Assembly (NCBI GenBank): GCA_028289065.1
Contig: JAQGHA010000016.1
Span: 77,460-141,459, forward strand
Direction: 5' to 3'
DNA from: Candidatus Saccharimonadota bacterium
GTDB taxonomy: Bacteria; Patescibacteriota; Saccharimonadia; Saccharimonadales; Saccharimonadaceae
Length of the DNA stretch: 64,000 nt
Part shown: piece by piece, positions 458-44,707 of the stretch
Position numbering within the stretch: the first letter of the stretch is position 1
Layout: the number at the start of each line of letters is the position of its first letter
Notes under the pieces: model-generated
What the model was told of the DNA's origin: nothing
The model's database searches: none
What the model saw: only the letters and a program-made list of their open reading frames with translations
Position numbers and translations under genes: made by a program

Positions 458-2566
458 ATGCCAACAATCAACCCTTACGGTAAGGATATTATTAAAGTAA
501 CAACCGAGTTTGAAGGTAAGCCTTTAACACTAGAAGTTAACCGTGTTGGTTTCCGTTCTACTGGTAGCGTTATGGTGACTTACGGCGACACAGTCGTTTT
601 AGGTACTGCTCAAGTTGGTACTCGACCAGTTGTGTTGGATTATTTCCCGCTCAGCCTGGACTATGAAGAAAAGTTTTATGCAGCCGGTAAAATTAGCGGC
701 AGCCGTTTTATTAAACGTGAAGGTCGCCCAAGTGACGAAGCAGTGCTGATTGGCCGTCTGATTGACCGCCCAATTCGCCCATTGTTTCCAAAGGGTTACC
801 GCCAAGAAGTCCAAGTGGTTGCAGGCGTATTAAGCCTTGACCCTAGCTTCCGCCCAGACATGATTGCCATGATTGCTGCCTCAAGTGCCCTAATGCTAAC
901 CGGAACACCATTCGACGGCCCTGTAGCCGGTTTACGTATTGGCCGAGTAAATGGTGAGTTCAAAGCTTTCCTTAGCCCTGAAGAACGCGAAGCTAGTGAC
1001 CTCGACTTAGTGGTTGCCGGTATCGAAAGTGGCATCACTATGGTTGAAGCTGGTGCTAACGAAGTACCTGAAGAAGTTGTAGCCGACGCATTAGCTTGGG
1101 CTTTCGAGCACTACCAACCAGCTATTAAGTTGCAGCAAGAATTGGTTGCTAAAATTCAACCAGTTGCTCAAGAATACACACTGGTTCTCCCAGATGAATC
1201 ACTCCAAGTGCTGGCCAACGAATGGGTAGACGGCAAACTTGGCGAAGCAATCCGCAAGCCATACCCAGAACGTAACGAAATGGTAAACCAACTTCGCCGG
1301 GCTTTTCACGCCGAAATGCTTGAAAAGTTTGTAGAAGATTACGCACACGGTAAATACGACGAAGCCTTTACCGCTGCACTTCACAACGATGTTCGTAAGG
1401 GGATTGTGGAACACAGTGTTCGTCCAGACGGCCGCCAGTTTACTGATATCCGCCCACTTTCAAGCGAAGTAGGGGTATTACCTCGAACCCACGGTTCATC
1501 AATCTTTACTCGCGGTATGACACAAGCCTTAAACGTCGTGACACTTGCGCCACTTAGTTATTCACAAATTGTTGATACGATGGAAATTACTGATGGCGAA
1601 CGCCGTTACATGCACCACTACAACGCCCCTGGGTACACTGTTGGTGAAGTGCAACGACTCGGTGGCCCGGGCCGTCGTGAAATTGGCCACGGCTTCCTTG
1701 CAGAACGGGCGCTGATTCCTGTTCTACCTAGCGAAGAAGACTTCCCGTACGCCATCCGTAGCGTCACGGAAATTATGAGCCAAAACGGTTCAACTTCAAT
1801 GGCAGCTACTTGTTCAAGCTGTTTGGCACTTATGGACGCCGGTGTGCCAATTACCTCAATGGTAAGTGGTATTGCTATGGGTCTTATGGTGGACGGCGAC
1901 AAACACTACGTGTTAAGTGACATTGCCGACGCTGAAGACTTTGCTGGTGACATGGACTTTAAGTGTGCTGGTACCGCTAAGGGTTTAACCGCTCTTCAAA
2001 TGGACATGAAAGTTCACGGACTTCCGGTTTCAATTTTGAAAGAAGCACTTCTTGCTGGAAAGATTGGCCGTGCGCACATTCTTGAAAGCATGGTAGAGAC
2101 ACTTGCTCAACCACGTACTGAACTCAGCCCATACGCACCACGTATCGAAAAGATTAAGATCAACCCAGAAAAAATTGGTGCAGTTATTGGTAAGGGTGGA
2201 GAAGTGATTAACAAGATTACTTCTGAAACCGGCGCCTTAATTGATATCAAGGAAGACGGCCTCATTACCGTTGCTGGTTCTGACCCAGCTGGTATCGCCC
2301 GAGCGATTGAATGGATTAAGGGCCTGACCGAAGAAGCTGAAGTAGGAAAAATCTACCGTGGCCAAGTGGTCAGTATTAAAGACTTCGGAGCTTTCGTAAA
2401 CATCATGCCTGGCCAAGATGGTATGGTTCACATTAGCCAACTGTCTAACGAGCGTGTTGAACAAGTCGGCGACATCCTTACTGAAGGCGAAATGATTAAC
2501 GTGAAGCTTGCCGGTATCGACGAGCGTGGACGTTTGAGCCTGACAATGATTGATGTTGAGCAATAA
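458..2566 (+). CDS. pnp: Polyribonucleotide nucleotidyltransferase (PNPase)
   Basis: Two RNase PH domains (RLIDRPIRPLFP, RREIGHG, SQNGSTSMA, DFAGDMDFK) plus KH and S1 domains. Confidence 0.98.
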   Translation: MPTINPYGKDIIKVTTEFEGKPLTLEVNRVGFRSTGSVMVTYGDTVVLGTAQVGTRPVVLDYFPLSLDYEEKFYAAGKISGSRFIKREGRPSDEAVLIGRLIDRPIRPLFPKGYRQEVQVVAGVLSLDPSFRPDMIAMIAASSALMLTGTPFDGPVAGLRIGRVNGEFKAFLSPEEREASDLDLVVAGIESGITMVEAGANEVPEEVVADALAWAFEHYQPAIKLQQELVAKIQPVAQEYTLVLPDESLQVLANEWVDGKLGEAIRKPYPERNEMVNQLRRAFHAEMLEKFVEDYAHGKYDEAFTAALHNDVRKGIVEHSVRPDGRQFTDIRPLSSEVGVLPRTHGSSIFTRGMTQALNVVTLAPLSYSQIVDTMEITDGERRYMHHYNAPGYTVGEVQRLGGPGRREIGHGFLAERALIPVLPSEEDFPYAIRSVTEIMSQNGSTSMAATCSSCLALMDAGVPITSMVSGIAMGLMVDGDKHYVLSDIADAEDFAGDMDFKCAGTAKGLTALQMDMKVHGLPVSILKEALLAGKIGRAHILESMVETLAQPRTELSPYAPRIEKIKINPEKIGAVIGKGGEVINKITSETGALIDIKEDGLITVAGSDPAGIARAIEWIKGLTEEAEVGKIYRGQVVSIKDFGAFVNIMPGQDGMVHISQLSNERVEQVGDILTEGEMINVKLAGIDERGRLSLTMIDVEQ

Positions 2567-3421: not shown

Positions 3422-5248
3422 ATGAAAAATATAAAACAAAATAAAGTCGCCCGAGCTGCTCGTCAAAAGTCCGATAGGGCAGCCAGTCGCTTGCGTGATT
3501 TCCGTACCAAAACCGCCAAGGTTATCACATTAGGGCAAAAGACATTGCGAATCATTCCACTTGGTGGACAAGACGGCATTGGTGAGAAAAATATGATTGT
3601 CGTTGAATACGGCGACGATGCAATTATTCTCGATACGGGCTTTGAGCTCGGTATTGATTTGCCAGGCATTAACTATGCCATTCCAGTTACCGATTACCTC
3701 GAAACAATTCGCCATAAAATTAAAGGCTACGTTATAAGCCATGGCCACATGGATCATATTGGTGGCTTGGTGCACATAGTGCCACAATATCCAGCACCGA
3801 TATTTGGGAGCCAGTTTACAATTGGCATGGTTGAAGCGCAGTTTGAAAAGCTCGCAGAGCGAGGTATTCAATTTGTGCCGGATACACAAGTTGTTCAAAT
3901 GGATGAACACGAGCGAATTAAACTTGGCGAGTTGACGATAGAACTTGTTCGGGTAACGCATGCTATTCCCGAATCGTCAGCAATTGTTGTTGATACCCCT
4001 GTGGGAAAGCTCATTAATACCGGTGATTTTCGGCTTGACCCTGAACCACTTGATGATAAACCAACCGACATTAAACGGCTTAAACAGCTTGGAGATGAGG
4101 GTGTTTTGCTTCTTATGAGCGAAAGCACTAATACTTCAAAGCTTGGCCGCACTCCAACTGAACACACTCTACAAGATAGTTTTTATGAACTTGTTGAGAA
4201 GACGAAAGGCCGGTTGGTGGTGGCGGTATTCTCGTCGAACATGAACCGGGTGCAGATGATTGTAAACGCCGCTCATCTTAACGGCCGTAAAGTTGCGCTT
4301 GATGGCCGCAGTATGATGATGGTAGCTGAATTAGCAGTACGCTTAGGTAACCTGAAAATCCCTAAAGGCACCTTTATATCGATGCGGGAAGCAGCAAGTA
4401 TTCCAGATGACCAATTGATTATTATTTGTACCGGTGGGCAAGGTGAACCTGGCGCGGCCTTAAGTCGTATGGCCATCGGCGAACACTCGATCATTAAATT
4501 AAAAAGAGGTGACAGTGTCGTTATTAGTAGCACGCCAATCCCTGGCAACGAGCAAAGCTATGCCAAAATGGGCGACAACCTTGCACGCTTAAAAGTGAAG
4601 CAATACCGCCACCCGACCCACGAAATAGACGGCTCAGGTCCACTGCACGTATCGGGCCACGCCTCGCGTGACGAACATGCCGAAATGATTCAACTAACGC
4701 AACCCACGTATTTAATGCCTATATATGGCGGTCCATTACCTCGCCTGTATCATCAACAAATCGGTATTAGCCAGGGTATAAACCCAGCGAATATTTTAAT
4801 GGTCGACAATGGTACCGTCATCGAGTTTCGTAAAGGTTTTAAGCCAAGTTTTCCTGGTTACGTAACCAATGGTTCAACCCTCGTCGATCAAACTGGCGCA
4901 CTTGTGCCGGAAATTGTTAGCCGTGACCGCTTGCTACTTCAAGATAGCGGTTTCGTAGTGGTTATCCTCACCATCGATATCAATGGTCGGTTAGTGGCCA
5001 GCCCCGATATTATCACTCGCGGGCACTTAGCAGTAAAAGAGAATGCAACTATAATGAATGAGCTTCGAATCAATCTGAAGAAGTACGTTACGACAAGTGG
5101 GAAGCCGCGTTCAAGAGCGGCTGTCGATTTGATGAAGTTAGGGGTTCAAGAACTTACCCAGGACTATATGTTTGATAAAGTTTCTGCAACCCCTATAGTG
5201 ATTCCTGTAATTAATATAGTTGGCCATCAGGGGTCCACGAATGTATAG
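3422..5248 (+). CDS. rnj: Ribonuclease J, paralog 1
   Basis: PLGGQDGIGEKNM, SHGHMDH metal motif, TGDF, SESTN, TGGQGEP, HVSGH. Confidence 0.93.
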   Translation: MKNIKQNKVARAARQKSDRAASRLRDFRTKTAKVITLGQKTLRIIPLGGQDGIGEKNMIVVEYGDDAIILDTGFELGIDLPGINYAIPVTDYLETIRHKIKGYVISHGHMDHIGGLVHIVPQYPAPIFGSQFTIGMVEAQFEKLAERGIQFVPDTQVVQMDEHERIKLGELTIELVRVTHAIPESSAIVVDTPVGKLINTGDFRLDPEPLDDKPTDIKRLKQLGDEGVLLLMSESTNTSKLGRTPTEHTLQDSFYELVEKTKGRLVVAVFSSNMNRVQMIVNAAHLNGRKVALDGRSMMMVAELAVRLGNLKIPKGTFISMREAASIPDDQLIIICTGGQGEPGAALSRMAIGEHSIIKLKRGDSVVISSTPIPGNEQSYAKMGDNLARLKVKQYRHPTHEIDGSGPLHVSGHASRDEHAEMIQLTQPTYLMPIYGGPLPRLYHQQIGISQGINPANILMVDNGTVIEFRKGFKPSFPGYVTNGSTLVDQTGALVPEIVSRDRLLLQDSGFVVVILTIDINGRLVASPDIITRGHLAVKENATIMNELRINLKKYVTTSGKPRSRAAVDLMKLGVQELTQDYMFDKVSATPIVIPVINIVGHQGSTNV

Positions 5249-6025: not shown

Positions 6026-7669
6026 ATGATACTCACCGCAACCATCGAAGAAAAATCCTTTGGCGATAAGCTTCTTTTTAAGAATACTTCGTTTTTTGTT
6101 GATGATGATGAGAAGGTTGGAATTGTCGGCCGTAACGGAGAAGGCAAGACGACTTTGTTCCGGATTGTTATGGAAGAAGATAAAGATTTTCAAGGTGAGT
6201 TTTCTTTAGGCAAGGGCGTTTCAATTATCGCTACGCGCCAAGAGCACCATGGTTTTGAAGACATGGTAGTTATGGAATATATCCTGCAAGATTTGCCGCA
6301 TTACGGTAAATTGAAGCACATTCTTGAAAACCACCCACTGGTTATGGGTGACGATATGAAACTTATTCACGAGTATTCAGAAGCGCTTGAACGCTTTGAT
6401 TCGTTGGGCTACTACAATATTGAAAATGAAGTTGAAAAAACCATGGATTCATTTCAACTTGGTTCGAAGCTTCAAAGTAAAATTGGTGAACTTTCTGGTG
6501 GTCAAAAACGCCTAGTAGAAGTTGCTAAGGTAATGATTTCTAAAGCGCAAATTGCCCTTATTGACGAACCGACCAACCACATGGACTACGTTGCCAAAGA
6601 TAAGTTTCTGCAGTGGATGAATACTGCTAAAGAAGCAATGCTGGTAATTACTCACGACCGCGACGTCCTTGAAACGGTTGACCGTATTTTGGAAGTAAAA
6701 GACCAAAAGATTATTAGCTATAAGGGAAACTATAGCGATTACCTGCGCCAAAATGCCGGTTCTACTAGTAGTATGATGAATGAGTTTGAGATGGTGCAAC
6801 GCCGTATCGTCAACCTAAAGGGCAAAATTATTGAATATCAACGCTTTAAAGAGAAGTCTCGTACCCCTAGTACTATTCAACGTTTCAAGCGACTTGAACA
6901 AACCTCTCGCGATGAACTTGCCAAACTTGAAAAGCAAGAACGGCCTACTTTCTGGGTTGATAGCGATTCGGTTGCCGACATGGGCCTTAAAACTGGTGAA
7001 CAATACCAAAAGTTTAAAGCTAAGAATATTCGGCTGAGTGGCGTGAATGGAGACGAAGGTTTTGGCCGACTGCTCGTGAATGTGTCTGACGTTTCACTTG
7101 GATACGACAAGCCGCTCTTTAAAGGCGTTTCATTTCAAATCCGCGAAGGTGAAACCCTTGAGCTTCGTGGCCGTAACGGTGCCGGTAAATCGACAATGGT
7201 TAAAACCTTGCTTTCTACGGTGACTGGTAACGAATTTAGCGCCAAAGTGTTCAGCGGTACCATGGATATAGACAAGAAAATTCGGGTTGGTGTGTATGAA
7301 CAAGAAACACCTGATATGTGGCTGACTAAAAAGCTTGGTGAAGCGATTGAATACATTTATTTGTCTCGTGGTTTGGCAATAGGGGACACTAAAGTTCGCC
7401 AGCTTATGGCCGATTATTTGTTCACGCAAAATGATGCAAACATTCCAGTTTCTCAATTAAGTGGTGGCCAAAAAGCCCGTCTGCAGCTTATTGATATGCT
7501 TTCAGACAGCCCGTCACTTCTGGTACTCGACGAACCGACCAACCACCTTGACCTTCCAAGTATTGAAGAGCTAGAACAAGCTTTAAAAAATTATACAGGC
7601 GCTATTCTTTACATTTCACACGATACCTTCTTTAGGAAGAACCTCGGCGGTGAAGTTGTCCAGCTGTAA
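6026..7669 (+). CDS. ABC-F family ATPase
   Basis: Two ABC domains (GRNGEGKTT, LSGGQK, DEPTNH; GRNGAGKST, LSGGQK, DEPTNH), coiled linker, no TM segments. Confidence 0.95.
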   Translation: MILTATIEEKSFGDKLLFKNTSFFVDDDEKVGIVGRNGEGKTTLFRIVMEEDKDFQGEFSLGKGVSIIATRQEHHGFEDMVVMEYILQDLPHYGKLKHILENHPLVMGDDMKLIHEYSEALERFDSLGYYNIENEVEKTMDSFQLGSKLQSKIGELSGGQKRLVEVAKVMISKAQIALIDEPTNHMDYVAKDKFLQWMNTAKEAMLVITHDRDVLETVDRILEVKDQKIISYKGNYSDYLRQNAGSTSSMMNEFEMVQRRIVNLKGKIIEYQRFKEKSRTPSTIQRFKRLEQTSRDELAKLEKQERPTFWVDSDSVADMGLKTGEQYQKFKAKNIRLSGVNGDEGFGRLLVNVSDVSLGYDKPLFKGVSFQIREGETLELRGRNGAGKSTMVKTLLSTVTGNEFSAKVFSGTMDIDKKIRVGVYEQETPDMWLTKKLGEAIEYIYLSRGLAIGDTKVRQLMADYLFTQNDANIPVSQLSGGQKARLQLIDMLSDSPSLLVLDEPTNHLDLPSIEELEQALKNYTGAILYISHDTFFRKNLGGEVVQL

Positions 7670-11487: not shown

Positions 11488-13746
11488 ATGGGTCAACAAA
11501 GACTCTCAACCCCACAAGGCGATGACGCCTCGAAACAACCGCGTAACCAGCCGCGACCAAAATCAAATAATACTGTTCTTGCAAACACTCAAACCCGTAG
11601 GGGAGAAGTGTTCCGAGCTCAACGTCGTACCAGTGACGACGTAAACGCTCGTGCCTCACAACACGTTATTAATATTCCGGTTAACAAAAACGTCTTTAAC
11701 GGTTACGGTGGCCGCCAATTTAGCGTTGCTGACTTTAAAAAGCAACCTCGCACTTCTGGCCCTAAGCTTCGCGTTATCCCACTCGGTGGGCTAGGCGAAA
11801 TGGGTATTGGTAAAAACATGATGGCAATCGAATACGATAATGACATCATTGTTATCGACATGGGCTTCTTATTCCCAGGTGCTGATTACCCAGGTATTAA
11901 CTACATTGTGCCTGACGTGAGCTACCTCATCGAAAACAAGCATAAAATTCGGGCAATCGTATTTACCCACGGTCACCTGGACCACATTGGTGCCGTTCGC
12001 CACCTTATTCACCAAATTCCAGCCCCTGTCTACGGTTCAAAGTTTACTTTGGCTATGGTTCAAAAGAACATGGAAGAAGCGACCAGCGGATACGAGCCGG
12101 TTTATAACATCCTCGACCCTGAAGCCCACGAACGTGCTCAAATTGGCGACAGTTTTAGTATCGAACTTGTTCGAGTAAACCACTCAATCCCAGACGCTAC
12201 CGCGGTTGTTATCCGTACGCCACTTGGTGTATTAGTTGATACCGGTGACTGGCGTTTCGAAGATGCACCAGTAGACGGTAAAAAGTTCGACCTCGAACGT
12301 TTGACTGAAATCTCTGCTAAAGAAGGCATCCTGATGCTTATGAACGAATCAACCAACTGTGAATCTGAAGGTTCACATACCCACGGTGAGTTCGATATCA
12401 AAGAGAGCATGGGCCAGGTTATGGAAAAGCACTCAAGCAGCCGACTTATCATCAGTTGTTTCAGTAGCCAAATCCACCGTATGCAACTTATTCTTGATGA
12501 AGCCAAAAAGCACAATCGTAAGGTTGCCTTCGCTGGTTACAGCATGATCCAAAACGTTGAAGTAGCCCTTCGTACTGGTACGATTACCGTTCCTAAAGAC
12601 GTGATTGTGAAGATGGAAGACATTATTAAAATGCCTGACGAAAAAGTCACCATTGTTTGTACTGGTTCACAAGGTGAATTTAGCGCCGTCCTTAACCGTA
12701 TGGCTAGTGGTTCACACAAGTTCATCAAAATTAAAAACAGCGACATTATCGTCTTTAGCTCAAATGCTATTCCTGGTAATGAAAAGTACGTTACTCGTAC
12801 CGTTGATGGTTTGATGCGTGAAGGTAGTGAAGTTGTTCAAAACGGCAAAACCCACCTTACAGGCATTGGCCCGCTACACCTTTCAGGTCACGGGTACTAC
12901 GATGACCACGTAAAGCTTATTAATGCCTTGAACCCTAAATACTACCTGCCAATCCACGGTGAATTCCACATGTTGGCCCACAACGCCGTTCTTGCGGAAC
13001 GCGAATGTGGCATTAAACGCGACAACATCTTTGTTTGTGACAGTGGTGACGTAATTGAAATCACCTCTGACAAAGCTCGTAAAGCCGGCCGCGTACCAGT
13101 TGGTGGTGTTATGTACGATGACTCTGGAGCGATTGTTTCAGAAGTAGTCCTTAAAGACCGTATCCACATGGCCAGCGAAGGTATGTTTGTCGTGGTGCTG
13201 ACTGTCGCTAAGGGTAACGGCCGCTTACTTACCAGCCCTGACATCATTAGCCGTGGGTTCATTTACCTGCGCGATAGTGAAGAGCTCATGGGTATCATCC
13301 GCCAATACTTGAAGCAAAAAGTTGCTCGCACTTTCAGCGGCCGTCGGGTTGACCTGGACGTCGTGAAGAAGGAAATTAAAGACGAATTAACACACGTACT
13401 GTATGACCAAACTCGTCGCACTCCAATTGTGATTCCTGTGATTAACGAAATTGGTGGCGGTGGCAAGCCTCAACACGAAGGTGGTGGCCAAGGTGAAAAC
13501 CGTGATAACCGTGGCGACAACAATGGCCGTCCGAACAACAACCGTAACCAAGGTGGTCAAAACCGTGGTCCTCGGCCAAGCTTCGGTGGCCAAAGTGCTG
13601 CACCCGATAACGGTCCAATGCAACCTGACACTCGTCCGCCAGAACCTCGTTACGAGCGCCCAGCGCCACAAACGTTTCCTGCGCCCGTCGTTCCAGACAT
13701 TGAAACTGTCGAACCTAAAACACACGTCGACACTCGCGGTTACTAA
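11488..13746 (+). CDS. rnj: Ribonuclease J, paralog 2, with long low-complexity N- and C-terminal extensions
   Basis: PLGGLGEMGIGKNM, THGHLDH, TGDW, NESTN, TGSQGE, HLSGH, PIHGE. Confidence 0.95.
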   Translation: MGQQRLSTPQGDDASKQPRNQPRPKSNNTVLANTQTRRGEVFRAQRRTSDDVNARASQHVINIPVNKNVFNGYGGRQFSVADFKKQPRTSGPKLRVIPLGGLGEMGIGKNMMAIEYDNDIIVIDMGFLFPGADYPGINYIVPDVSYLIENKHKIRAIVFTHGHLDHIGAVRHLIHQIPAPVYGSKFTLAMVQKNMEEATSGYEPVYNILDPEAHERAQIGDSFSIELVRVNHSIPDATAVVIRTPLGVLVDTGDWRFEDAPVDGKKFDLERLTEISAKEGILMLMNESTNCESEGSHTHGEFDIKESMGQVMEKHSSSRLIISCFSSQIHRMQLILDEAKKHNRKVAFAGYSMIQNVEVALRTGTITVPKDVIVKMEDIIKMPDEKVTIVCTGSQGEFSAVLNRMASGSHKFIKIKNSDIIVFSSNAIPGNEKYVTRTVDGLMREGSEVVQNGKTHLTGIGPLHLSGHGYYDDHVKLINALNPKYYLPIHGEFHMLAHNAVLAERECGIKRDNIFVCDSGDVIEITSDKARKAGRVPVGGVMYDDSGAIVSEVVLKDRIHMASEGMFVVVLTVAKGNGRLLTSPDIISRGFIYLRDSEELMGIIRQYLKQKVARTFSGRRVDLDVVKKEIKDELTHVLYDQTRRTPIVIPVINEIGGGGKPQHEGGGQGENRDNRGDNNGRPNNNRNQGGQNRGPRPSFGGQSAAPDNGPMQPDTRPPEPRYERPAPQTFPAPVVPDIETVEPKTHVDTRGY

Positions 13747-37884: not shown

Positions 37885-38151
37885 TTAGCGCACGAGCGGG
37901 TTGAAACCGTGCGCGATGACGAGCTGGTTGAAGATAGGGCTAGCAGCGTGGGCGACGCGAAGGTCGTGGATCGCTGCATCGACGCGGGCTAGCATGAAGG
38001 CGGGCAGCTGTTCCATCATGTCGAAGGCGTCGAAGTTGTCATCGTCATCTTCCTCGTAGTAGCTGTCGAGTTCGGCACTGACAGCCGCGTCGATGAGGTG
38101 CATCTCATGCACTTCTTGATCGATGATCTTGCGGTGTTGCTGGTTACCCAT
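37885..38151 (-). CDS. GC-rich acidic orphan protein U3 (88 aa)
   Basis: TTGACT-17-TATAAT promoter, SD GGAG, C/G-ending codons. Confidence 0.75.
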   Translation of the reverse strand: MGNQQHRKIIDQEVHEMHLIDAAVSAELDSYYEEDDDDNFDAFDMMEQLPAFMLARVDAAIHDLRVAHAASPIFNQLVIAHGFNPLVR

Positions 38152-38916: not shown

Positions 38917-39970
38917 GTTACGGTTGAAGAAAAAGCAACCTGAAGAGCCAGCTGGTCGGATTACTACCGACACTTTGGCCGAGCACCGTCAGCAAGTTTT
39001 AGCTGGTGGTCGAAAATTTAAATACCCGGTTCAATACGCCCGCCACAAGTTGGTGGTGAATGCAATAATCATTATTATTGCGACGGTTATTATCCTTTTG
39101 GGTGTAGGCTACTGGTTACTGTACCAAGCTCAAAACACCAGTGACTTTATGTACCGCGTGACAAAAGTTGTGCCGGTACCAGTTGCTGAAGTTGATGGCC
39201 AGCAAGTTCGCTACAGTGAATACCTTATGAAGTTCCGCAGTAACCTGCATTACTTGGTTGAAAAAGAACAAGTTGATGTTACTACCGAGGACGGCCAACG
39301 CCAAGTCGAGTTTATTAAAGACCAAGCCATGCACGACGCTATTGCCGATGCCTTTGCGAACAAAATTGCCAAGGACAAAGACCTCAAGGTAACTGATGCC
39401 GAGCTTGAGACATACCTAAAGCAGCAACGACAATCCAGCGATGGCAATGAAGTTAGTGAATCAACCTATAACGCCGTTATTCTTGATTATTATGGCTGGT
39501 CACCAGATGAATACCAACAAGCTATGAAGACCAAGCTACTTCGCCAAAAGGTAGCCTACGCCGTTGACCAAGATGCCGAGACGGTTTCGAAAAAGGTGGA
39601 AGCAAGTATCGCCGCTGGAACAGTAGACTTAAATGTGGTGGCGACAACCATTAACGTCGATGAACAAAAGTCAGTTATATTTTGGCCAGCAGCTTGGGTA
39701 CCGCTTGATAACCAAGACGGTGGCTTAGCCGCTGCTGCCTTGAAACTCGAAATTGGCCAAGTATCTAAAGCTGTTAAAACAACCTCTGGTGATGGCTATT
39801 ACTACGTAAAACTGGTTGATAAAAACGAAACTCAAGTTCGCTACGAATACCTGCAAGTTCCACTGAGTGCTTTTGATGACCTGCTAGCAGATGCTGAAAC
39901 TGACAAAAAGACGACTCAATACATTAGTATTCCAGTTATTGACGAGCAAACCGAACCAACCAAACAATAG
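38900..39970 (+). CDS. SurA/PrsA-like membrane-anchored chaperone
   Basis: TM helix, PVAEVDG, GQVSKAVKT...GYYYVK parvulin-like end; SD AAGGAG before 38900. Confidence 0.7.
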   Translation: MKKLSKLRLKKKQPEEPAGRITTDTLAEHRQQVLAGGRKFKYPVQYARHKLVVNAIIIIIATVIILLGVGYWLLYQAQNTSDFMYRVTKVVPVPVAEVDGQQVRYSEYLMKFRSNLHYLVEKEQVDVTTEDGQRQVEFIKDQAMHDAIADAFANKIAKDKDLKVTDAELETYLKQQRQSSDGNEVSESTYNAVILDYYGWSPDEYQQAMKTKLLRQKVAYAVDQDAETVSKKVEASIAAGTVDLNVVATTINVDEQKSVIFWPAAWVPLDNQDGGLAAAALKLEIGQVSKAVKTTSGDGYYYVKLVDKNETQVRYEYLQVPLSAFDDLLADAETDKKTTQYISIPVIDEQTEPTKQ

Positions 39971-39983
39971 GGGGCACAACTAT

Positions 39984-40583
39984 ATGTTTAGCGTACCAGC
40001 ACTAAATTACGATTACGATGCACTGAGCGATTATATTAGCGCAGATATTATGCAGCTCCACCACGACAAGCATCACCAAGGCTACGTGGATAAATTAAAC
40101 GCGGCGGTTGAAAAATACCCTGAACTTCAAGGCAGGGCAGTAGAAGAATTACTTGTCGGTTTAAATTCTTTACCCGATGACATTCGTACCACCGTTCGTA
40201 ATAACGGTGGTGGCCACTATAACCATTGTCTGTTTTGGGTGTGGATGTCACCACAAGGTGGAGGGCAGCCATCTGGCCCGCTTTTAGAAGCTATTTTGCA
40301 GAGGTATGAGACGTTTGAGACATTCCAAGAAGAATTTGCGGCTAAAGCTATCAGTGTCTTTGGAAGTGGCTGGGTTTGGCTGCAGCCAAATATGGATATA
40401 ATCACCACACCAAACCAGGATTCATTATTAAGTTCCGGTGAACCAGCGCCATTACTAGGTCTAGACGTTTGGGAACACGCTTACTATTTGGACTATAAAA
40501 ACAAACGCCCCGAGTATATTAAAGCTTGGTGGAATGTCGTCAACTGGCCAGTGGTTGAAGCCCGTTTCGACGCCACGAACTAA
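39984..40583 (+). CDS. sodA: Superoxide dismutase, probably Mn-type
   Basis: HHDKHH, NGGGHYNH, DVWEHAYY. Confidence 0.95.
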   Translation: MFSVPALNYDYDALSDYISADIMQLHHDKHHQGYVDKLNAAVEKYPELQGRAVEELLVGLNSLPDDIRTTVRNNGGGHYNHCLFWVWMSPQGGGQPSGPLLEAILQRYETFETFQEEFAAKAISVFGSGWVWLQPNMDIITTPNQDSLLSSGEPAPLLGLDVWEHAYYLDYKNKRPEYIKAWWNVVNWPVVEARFDATN

Positions 40584-40664: not shown

Positions 40665-40976
40665 CTACATGTTGACGTAGTCGGGGAGACGGGTGTACTC
40701 GTCAATGCCGGCAGCGAAGTCGGCGACCGCGAGCCAGTACAGCATGACGAGATCGTCCGGGTAGGAAGCGTCGACTTCGTCGACGCCTGAACAGGGTTGG
40801 TCGTTCATGCGAAAGACCAGCTCGTCGGCGTTGACCAGGATGAAGTCGTACTGACCCTCCGCCTCGGAGTCCGGCTCGCACAGCTTGATGACGGCCCGAT
40901 GGCCATCCTCGAAGTGGTACGTGTCGACGTCATTCTCTGACGTAAAGGATTTGACGACGGGTGTTATGTCTGACAT
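40665..40976 (-). CDS. GC-rich acidic orphan protein U4 (103 aa)
   Basis: SD GAGGAGG, hairpin leader, TTTACG-17-TATTCT promoter. Confidence 0.8.
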   Translation of the reverse strand: MSDITPVVKSFTSENDVDTYHFEDGHRAVIKLCEPDSEAEGQYDFILVNADELVFRMNDQPCSGVDEVDASYPDDLVMLYWLAVADFAAGIDEYTRLPDYVNM

Positions 40977-41213
40977 ACAGCCTCCTCGGTCACTGTAGAA
41001 ACCTACAGTACGTCCACCATGGACGATAAAGAAAAGAATACCATAATTATGAATATTCGTAAATGCTCTTATGAGCGGTAAAAATTACGTTCATAACTGT
41101 CAACTATAAATATTCCACCATTTACATTTTGTAAAAAAAATTGTATAATCTTTTTTATGTCACATGGTGTGACGTGTAGCTGATAGGGCTACTGGTGGGA
41201 AGAGGGTAGTAAC

Positions 41214-41906
41214 ATGAGTACCAACACCGAAACGATCGAGGACTTCGTTCCCCACATCTACAAGTCCGAAGACGGCACCAACAGGTTCACCGTCGAGGTC
41301 GAACCAAACTACGGCATCGGCAACGACATCCTCGTCAAGCGTCTGCTCGGCTACGTGCAGGACGGGGTCGTGCTCGCCATCGTCGACTTCATCCTCGACG
41401 ACGACAGCATCGACGACGACGGCAAGAACCTGACGTTCGCGGCGTACTACATCGATGGCGTGCCTCACCCCGAGTACTTCGAGAACCTCTCGGTGATCGA
41501 CGTCGCTCAGATGTTGAACCAGGAGGTTTTCGTTGACCTCATCGGCCTCAAGCGGGACGTCCAGTTGTGGCGGGTCGTGGACATGCGTGAGAGTCGGACC
41601 GGACACGACTACTTCGTCGCGGTTCCCAAGGACGGCGACAGTGTTCGTTTCGAGTTGGCGCCGTACGTCTGGGTCGAGCCGGACATGCCTCCCACGGTGC
41701 TGAACTACAACGAGCTGCTCACGCTCGTGACGGATCCGCCCTTCGGACCCACTCTCTGGTACGTCGATCACCTCCTCGATCAGGACGAGGTGATGACCTG
41801 GGACGAGTTCTACTCGACGGGTCACCGTCTGATGATCGAGGACTACTCACGATCCAGCGACGAGAAGGCCTCCGAGGAGTTGGTATCAGAAGCCAGCGCC
41901 GAGTGA
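41214..41906 (+). CDS. GC-rich acidic orphan protein U5 (230 aa)
   Basis: 24 of first 29 non-Met codons end in G/C; TTTACA-17-TATAAT promoter. Confidence 0.82.
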   Translation: MSTNTETIEDFVPHIYKSEDGTNRFTVEVEPNYGIGNDILVKRLLGYVQDGVVLAIVDFILDDDSIDDDGKNLTFAAYYIDGVPHPEYFENLSVIDVAQMLNQEVFVDLIGLKRDVQLWRVVDMRESRTGHDYFVAVPKDGDSVRFELAPYVWVEPDMPPTVLNYNELLTLVTDPPFGPTLWYVDHLLDQDEVMTWDEFYSTGHRLMIEDYSRSSDEKASEELVSEASAE

Positions 41907-43398: not shown

Positions 43399-43488
43399 GT
43401 CATGCCTCCGGTGGAGTAGTCAAAGAGCGCTCGGATGAGCAGGCTTCATTATACCATAGGAAATAATAAATAGTGAATTTCGTCAATA

Positions 43489-44509: not shown

Positions 44510-44629
44510 GATTCCTCCTGTAGGATCTGTAGACGGGTGGGAACTTCAACTACCTTCTGGATGAGGGTGATGATTACATATTATAACAAAAAATAGACTA
44601 AAAGTCAATCTAGTCTATTAATGATATCT

Positions 44630-44707
44630 TGGCGGGCCCGACCGGATTCGAACCGGCGATCTTCTCCGTGACAGGGAGACGTGATAGGCCAGCTTCACTA
44701 CGAGCCC
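44630..44707 (-). tRNA. tRNA-Asp(GTC)
   Basis: Cloverleaf, anticodon loop CT-GTC-AC, G73, CCA. Confidence 0.95.

Follow-up and report, generated by a model that had tools for sequence, protein, structure and literature searches.

Where messages decay in the Bacillus manner, through RNase J and RNase Y and without RNase E, they are classically stabilised by 5' stem-loops and by ribosomes bound near the 5' end (PMC3997798). One example that this source lists of a 5' stem-loop stabiliser from an RNase J organism is the leader of Bacillus subtilis aprE (Hambraeus et al. 2002, in PMC3997798), and it also cites the 5'-terminal stem-loops of E. coli ompA and papA (Bouvet & Belasco 1992; Bricker & Belasco 1999, in PMC3997798), together with the cryIIIA STAB-SD and the polypurine 5' stabiliser of SP82 (Agaisse & Lereclus 1996; Hue et al. 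1995, in PMC3997798). In T4-type phages, the PeSL stem-loops are efficient terminators and recombination targets (PMC2839356).

[quoted passage not shown] Here we describe two promoter-leader units of this group that stand in front of two unrelated genes. Their leader structure is real, conserved and previously uncatalogued, and it is not a new mechanism. We lean slightly towards reading it as a 5'-terminal, mRNA-stabilising stem-loop, set in a promoter-leader module of common origin to both genes.

Two outward-facing units and the genes behind them

The window, by which we mean the whole 64,000-nt stretch that was analysed, belongs to a genome (G000) of 0.93 Mb with about 44% GC. Two divergent genes in it, U4 and U5, are separated by an AT-rich spacer of 237 nt (36% GC) that carries two outward-facing promoter-leader units. 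Promoter elements and Shine-Dalgarno sites were located in the sequence, the -10 hexamers also by alignment with homologous leaders (alignment A1), and the hairpins with RNAfold; the transcription starts given below are putative.

40665-40976, minus strand: U4 coding sequence, 103 aa, acidic, GC3 0.80, without a Pfam family
40982-40988, minus strand: U4 Shine-Dalgarno site GAGGAGG, with the ATG at 40976
40992-41009, minus strand: U4 hairpin 2, ACUGUAG-guuu-CUACAGU, 1 nt (t) after hairpin 1
41011-41025, minus strand: U4 hairpin 1, CGUCCA-UGG-UGGACG, 6 bp with a UGG triloop
41026-41034, minus strand: U4 T-rich stretch tttctttat, putative start at A 41027
41035-41040, minus strand: U4 -10 TATTCT, 17 nt past the -35
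41058-41063, minus strand: U4 -35 TTTACG (TTTACA/TTGACT in U4-family leaders)
41121-41126, plus strand: U5 -35 TTTACA (kept in L024, L026, L027 and L028)
41144-41149, plus strand: U5 -10 TATAAT, 17 nt past the -35
41150-41158, plus strand: U5 T-rich stretch cttttttat, putative start at A 41157
41159-41173, plus strand: U5 hairpin 1, GUCACA-UGG-UGUGAC, extendable to 8 bp over 41157-41175
41176-41192, plus strand: U5 hairpin 2, GUAGC-ugauagg-GCUAC, 2 nt (gt) after hairpin 1
41197-41206, plus strand: U5 purine-rich, Shine-Dalgarno-like stretch GGGAAGAGGG, with the ATG at 41214
41214-41906, plus strand: U5 coding sequence, 230 aa, acidic, GC3 0.86, without a Pfam family
44630-44707, minus strand: tRNA-Asp, distal boundary of the variable island containing U4 and U5

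Both units follow one layout: TTTAC-17-TATnnT, 9 nt ending in TAT, hairpin 1, hairpin 2, a Shine-Dalgarno site and the ATG. The initial annotation had claimed this twin arrangement (TTTAC, 17-nt spacer, -10, 9 nt, ATGGT hairpin, second hairpin), and the sequence confirms it. The hairpin centred on AUGGU is indeed shared, but the 5-bp stem assigned to it is a 6-bp stem with a UGG triloop instead, because the A and U of the supposed loop pair in RNAfold; the loop of U4 hairpin 2, counted as 5 nt, has 4 nt. The U4 and U5 stems had also been said to differ compensatorily. Each is complementary, yet an alternative alignment, GTC(A)CATGGTG(T)GAC, in which one pair is inserted and one outer pair lost, needs no four independent compensations.

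The two leaders are 0.72 identical (shuffles, 0.59 ± 0.03), and each whole leader has an RNAfold z of about -2. The pattern N5-ATGGT-rc(N5) has only three copies in the 0.93-Mb genome against about 1.8 expected, so the motif is not a genome-wide repeat; two of the three copies are the U4/U5 pair, 135 nt apart and behind matching promoters. No T-run follows either hairpin in U4 or U5, and an Rfam 15 scan of 36-46 kb gave no match within 40977-41213 at E ≤ 1. The U5 -35 sits in a small inverted repeat, TTTACA-N3-5-TGTAAA (window 41121-41139, plus strand; L024 737-753), which is only partial in L026 and may be chance in AT-rich DNA.

The U4 and U5 proteins are unrelated by profile comparison (hhalign probability 3.8%), and a Foldseek comparison of their AlphaFold2 models (pLDDT 75.0 for U4, 70.6 for U5) with the PDB returned nothing below E = 0.1. 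Pfam holds no family for either protein, their neighbours or their homologues. Genes neighbouring the pair have a GC3 of about 0.35-0.45. Small GC3-rich ORFans (0.75-0.86) are scattered in this genome, whose ordinary genes have a GC3 of about 0.35-0.45: in the window at 40665-40976, 41214-41906 and 37885-38151, and elsewhere in G000 at C1:125321-126687, C6:130991-134643, C7:2582-3115 and C8:53543-55224. Each is preceded by an AT-rich, native-looking promoter, and their origin may lie in foreign DNA or in biased gene conversion within islands that recombine.

Homologous leaders and covarying stems

A word-indexed protein search matched U4 and U5 to nothing but themselves, and 60 relatives held no homologue of either, save one weak U4 match. 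An exhaustive protein search found distant homologues of U5 in only five cases, at 31-48% protein identity, while a two-sequence profile recovered six further U4-family proteins; the U4 family has seven members, each in a Saccharibacteria-type context.

A U5-type leader is present in all five distant homologues (L024-L028), with the form TTTAC[A/G]-17-TATA[A/G][T/A]-9 nt-[G/A]TCAC-A[T/A]GGT-GTGA[C/T] and then a second hairpin. In L024 and L026 the basal pair of hairpin 1 has changed on both sides, from G:C to A:U, and in L025 a U:A to C:G change gives hairpin 2 the compensatory form GCAGC/GCUGC. The loop A[U/A]GGU is kept in six of six U5-family leaders; L028 has an AGG triloop (AAGGU) in hairpin 1 and for that reason lacks the AUG. 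Leader identity across the homologues is 0.66-0.87 and coding-sequence identity 0.62-0.70, against a shuffle baseline of 0.59. For the closer relatives the leader values are 0.87, 0.84 and 0.78 versus 0.70, 0.65 and 0.66 for the coding sequences. Similarity within the family ends upstream of the -35, and L028 adjoins tRNA-Asp and tRNA-Thr, that is, the same island.

The two-hairpin leader is kept in five of the six other U4-family lineages, with hairpin 2 not conserved in one of them (G015):

G015: hairpin 1 CGTTC-ATGGT-GGACG (with a U.G pair); hairpin 2 not conserved; hairpin 8 nt after the -10
L138: hairpin 1 CGTCC-GAGT-GGGCG (with a U.G pair); hairpin 2 CTGTAG/CTGCAG; adjoins tRNA-Asp and sodA
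L141: hairpin 1 CGTTCA-TTG-TGAATG; hairpin 2 CTGCGC/GCGCAG
L140: hairpin 1 CGTCT-CACCAT-AGACG
L136: hairpin 1 ATCCA-GAG-TGGAT; hairpin 2 ATCGTGG/CCACGAT
L134: no comparable hairpin 1 or hairpin 2

Loops in this family are variable (GAGU, UUG, GAG, CACCAU). As judged from the leader sequences, the U4 family has conserved the two-hairpin architecture and not the loop. RNAfold also gives U4-type leaders an alternative pairing between the 5' arm of hairpin 1 and the Shine-Dalgarno site, a predicted structure that could point to translational control instead of stabilisation.

Helix 1 is 100% paired in alignment A1, and four of its six pairs change on both sides. No shuffle attains the observed score, slid controls are 23-53% paired, and the model-fitted alignment A4 agrees with A1 on the pair counts of helix 1. 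Where stem positions depart from Watson-Crick pairing, G.U outnumbers A.C: by 5 to 0 in leaders recovered via protein homology, by 6 to 1 when internal positions of promoter-proximal hairpins are counted family-wide, and by 11 to 1 overall. WGG triloops among promoter-proximal hairpins occur on the sense strand only (0 CCW). Since the mismatches are G.U and not A.C and WGG is confined to the sense strand, the leaders fold as sense-strand RNA. Full pairing of helix 1, double changes and G.U wobbles go together in a structure that is conserved while its sequence is free to vary. The initial annotation had proposed a conserved 5' RNA structure with covarying stems and had staked it on the existence of further covarying instances; these were found in both the U5 and the U4 family, and the homologous leaders elsewhere show that the design is conserved and not a product of chance.

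The hairpin arms are diverse yet complementary (CGTCC, GTCAC, ATCCA, TGAGC, GTTCT and others), and because they differ completely between instances while staying complementary, a protein-bound DNA palindrome is unfit as an explanation. We consider it very improbable that a 15-19-bp palindrome near +10 acts as a DNA operator, binding a dimeric repressor that would block both divergent genes. A perfect palindrome over the start site does occupy the classic operator position, U4-type promoters have a spacer palindrome too, and the L140 centre CACCAT is the reverse complement of ATGGTG, as if orientation were immaterial. However, a DNA-binding protein would not tolerate such arms, and the G.U bias, the restriction of WGG to the sense strand and the second covarying hairpin directly downstream all argue against an operator.

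The UGG apex and the tRNA-Asp island

A third promoter-proximal hairpin with a CA-NGG-UG apex (here CA-AGG-UG) lies on contig C11 of the genome (G000 C11 about 7020-7100; L149 1527-1595) and reads TTGACA-17-TAAAAT-8 nt-UGCGCA-AGG-UGCGUA. A Shine-Dalgarno site directly follows this hairpin, and then a 301-aa membrane ORFan. Across 401 genomes of the family, the pattern TTTAC-N17-19-TAnnnT-N10-15-CAWGGTG gave 27 new matches, five of which have at least four further pairs against 0.5 expected; in four of these five, which come from four other genera (L150, L157, L161, L173), a perfect TATAAT precedes the hairpin. When CA-NNN-TG was counted at TTTAC promoters without bias towards any triloop, WGG made up 5 of 10 true hairpins versus 0 of 39 non-hairpins.

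TTGAC promoters did not reproduce this enrichment: WGG accounted for 1 of 34 hairpins there (p = 0.72), and the triloops were diverse (CCG 5, AAT 3, WGG 1). CA-NGG-UG hairpins were not enriched genome-wide either (24 vs 22.5 expected). The exact pattern TATNNT-N6-TAT-stem-CATGGTG-stem had 42 matches with one perfect stem in GTDB species genomes and 33 matches with three perfect stems in JGI metagenomes, at chance level and without promoter context in both. A covariance-model search (R1; 40 genus and 150 family genomes) returned the training loci and homologous promoters only, and not one additional AUGGU leader. Because the TTGAC replication failed and CA-NGG-UG is not enriched genome-wide, the apex is not a general signal; the UGG apex marks no more than a subset of TTTAC promoters, perhaps through shared ancestry. 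The identical loop, first put forward as the key signal, does not hold up in that role, given its variation in the U4 family and its rarity at TTGAC promoters.

A second recurrent apex, CA-CCG-UG, was seen on six unrelated stems at promoter +1 hairpins in other genera of the family (L185, L225, L255, L260, L264, L290). At TTGAC promoters it occurs in 5 of 34 hairpins versus 2 of 91 non-hairpins (p = 0.016). Gene conversion between the inverted leaders was rejected as the cause of the common loop: AUGGU is also found in G015, which has the U4-type leader only, and in L024-L027, which have the U5-type only.

The apex may nevertheless be a sequence-specific element, in which CA-UGG-UG on a 5' hairpin would be bound by a protein or RNA that co-regulates accessory genes with TTTAC promoters; we take this seriously but think it unlikely. 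It would suit the loop that all six U5-family leaders keep although the proteins are 31-48% identical, the recurrence of this apex on unrelated stems after TTTAC-17-TATAAT in L150, L157, L161 and L173, the sense-strand WGG of TTTAC hairpins, and the third copy on contig C11. It does not suit the loops of the U4 family, the failed replication at TTGAC promoters, where CCG is as frequent (5/34), or the genome-wide count, and csrA is absent and no candidate for the binding factor emerged. For the U5 family, a loop-specific binding function has a modest chance of being real. Quite doubtful is the wider proposal that a TTTAC promoter with a CA-(U/A)GG-UG hairpin constitutes a distinct, transferable expression module peculiar to this family of Saccharibacteria, with a dedicated factor and a regulon of fast-evolving, GC3-rich accessory genes such as those in the tRNA-Asp island. 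Should a factor prove to read the apex specifically, the apex would count as a new motif among cis-regulatory RNAs.

The SELEX consensus of CsrA is ACA-RGGA-UGU, with GGA in the loop, and the apex ACA-[A/U]GG-UGU resembles it. A CsrA target hairpin was rejected: the A after GG is missing in the UGG and AGG loops, and no csrA (PF02599) was found in the genome, although control genomes did match.

Two further proposals concerned the loop itself, as the start of a translated mini-ORF (MV-stop, MVDVL-stop) or as a partner for tRNA 3' ACCA ends, to which UGGU is complementary; both seem to us scarcely credible. An AUG is present in the loops of U4, U5, G015, L024, L025, L026 and L027, but it is absent from L028 (AAGGU) and from L136, L138, L140 and L141, the reading frames run to 2, 5 and 24 codons, and no Shine-Dalgarno site lies upstream. 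The AUG is not conserved, and the element is therefore not a uORF. The same leaders that lack the AUG have lost UGGU, and T-box specifier and terminator parts are missing, with no match to the T-box or another Rfam family. As explanations, the DNA operator, the uORF and tRNA-end pairing are each either weak or refuted.

U4 and U5 lie in a variable island between sodA (39891-40583) and tRNA-Asp. In relatives, a U4-type promoter directly adjoins tRNA-Asp, and this promoter is conserved in at least five genomes of the genus, with different ORFans behind it. Its spacer holds an inverted repeat between the -35 and the -10, ATACCA[C/T]-N3-5-[G/A]TGGTAT, which changes compensatorily (ACCAC/GTGGT vs ACCATA/TATGGT) and looks like a putative operator. 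Three other island-type genes have leaders that share CTCATCC[G/A]A[G/A] about 8-12 nt past the -10 (gcctgCTCATCCGAGcg, caCCCTCATCCAGAAGG, agCCCTCATCCGAGTGG), and this motif may be a second recurring leader element.

L005, about 1523-1552, minus strand: tRNA-Asp-adjacent promoter
L031/L032/L033/L035, 1501-1530: tRNA-Asp-adjacent promoter
L138, 5-35: tRNA-Asp-adjacent promoter
Window 43399-43447, minus strand: CTCATCC-type leader
Window about 44510-44590, minus strand: CTCATCC-type leader
G000 C4, upstream of 84163: CTCATCC-type leader

Like the PeSLs of T4-type phages, the locus has a strong sigma-70-like promoter and a stem-loop repeated before unrelated ORFans in a hypervariable region. A mobile cassette, whose conserved promoter and hairpins would mark gene-swap boundaries in the tRNA-Asp island, could draw on the promoter TTTACAAATACCACnAAATGTGGTATTnT, which adjoins tRNA-Asp and drives different ORFans in G027, G010, G018, G013 and G015, on the 0.72 identity of the leaders of two unrelated ORFans, and on an island content that differs between genomes. 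We hold it to be improbable. In those relatives the conserved stretch reaches no further than the start region, and every gene has a hairpin of its own; the shared recombination target is therefore not the hairpin. Unlike PeSLs (PMC2839356), the U4 and U5 hairpins have no T-run, are not terminators and lie inside the 5' UTR. Exact-pattern scans gave no copies elsewhere.

The transcript 5' end and known stabilisers

Leaderless genes of relatives (L031, L035, L142, L144, L145) have their ATG 7-8 nt past a TATTAT/TATAAT -10, and they often open with ATG TCA. Calibrated on these genes, transcription of U4 and U5 would start at the A within the conserved TAT. Hairpin 1 begins 9 nt past the -10 (8 nt in G015), and a start on that A would place it at +1 in U5, with the extended stem, or at +3 in U4, so within +1 to +3.

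Hairpins at this position are frequent in the genome. Of 69 promoter-like sites followed by a Shine-Dalgarno site and an ORF, 20 bear a hairpin of at least 5 bp starting 6-12 nt past the -10; shuffled sequences give 7.2 ± 2.2. Hairpins start most often at offsets 3-14 and less often further downstream, and the genes with +1 hairpins include those for ribosomal proteins L3, L27 and L28. A share of about 30% fits an RNase J/Y decay system, for which the genome has the following genes:

Window about 3548-5212, plus strand: RNase J paralogue, above the TIGR00649 cut-off
Window about 11770-13443, plus strand: second RNase J paralogue, above the TIGR00649 cut-off
G000 C4:65126-66622: RNase Y, single gene

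No RNase E/G was detected in the genome. Among the functions that the initial annotation had proposed, a block to RNase J fits best, given the likely position of hairpin 1 at +1 to +3, the presence of RNase J and RNase Y and the absence of RNase E.

Under the stabiliser reading that we slightly favour, U4 and U5 would each be transcribed from their own sigma-70-type promoter, and each mRNA would open, after 0-2 nt, with a short, stable stem-loop of 6-8 bp and a UGG triloop. A second hairpin would come directly after it, and then a single-stranded Shine-Dalgarno region. The hairpins may hide the 5' end from 5'-end-dependent decay (the RNase J 5' exonuclease, pyrophosphate removal) and would thereby set the lifetime of the message, as known 5' stem-loop stabilisers do; it is from this analogy that we infer their stabilising effect. 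Hairpins at +1 would be a common promoter design of the genome, and U4 and U5 would share the TTTAC/TAT/CA-UGG-UG/second-hairpin version because the module has a common origin and was kept while the proteins diverged. Several findings speak against a plain stabiliser: it needs no conserved loop, yet A[U/A]GGU is kept throughout the U5 family and WGG apexes are frequent among the hairpins of TTTAC promoters, and L134 has no comparable hairpin.

In this best-supported reading, the promoter-leader module would be under purifying selection while the proteins evolve fast. Its design (-35/-10, a putative start at ..TAT, a hairpin at the predicted +1, hairpin 2, Shine-Dalgarno) is far better conserved than the proteins behind it. 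The leaders are a ready-made, testable part for expression tools in hard-to-handle epibionts, and a handle on the expression of ORFans in the variable tRNA-Asp island.

STAB-SD and the SP82 polypurine stabiliser, both listed in PMC3997798, offer a partial parallel: the apex and 3' arm, (A/U)GGUG, look like a piece of an extended Shine-Dalgarno sequence close to the 5' terminus. Here, though, most of GGUG is paired, and U4-family leaders do not keep the loop; a search of the assembly for the 3' end of 16S rRNA came up empty. With ompA and papA, listed in the same source, the U4 and U5 leaders would share base pairing at the extreme 5' end, and protection here would be by analogy. The E. coli stem-loops act against RNase E/RppH, whereas the genome with U4 and U5 lacks RNase E/G.

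The aprE leader has no sequence relation to the leaders described here, which differ from it in having two tandem hairpins and a loop conserved within one gene family, and which would stabilise their messages by analogy with it. Like the aprE leader, they would be short (about 55-65 nt), opening with a stem-loop right at the predicted 5' terminus and closing with a strong ribosome binding site. The setting is also alike, with RNase J and RNase Y present, RNase E absent, and structure kept rather than sequence.
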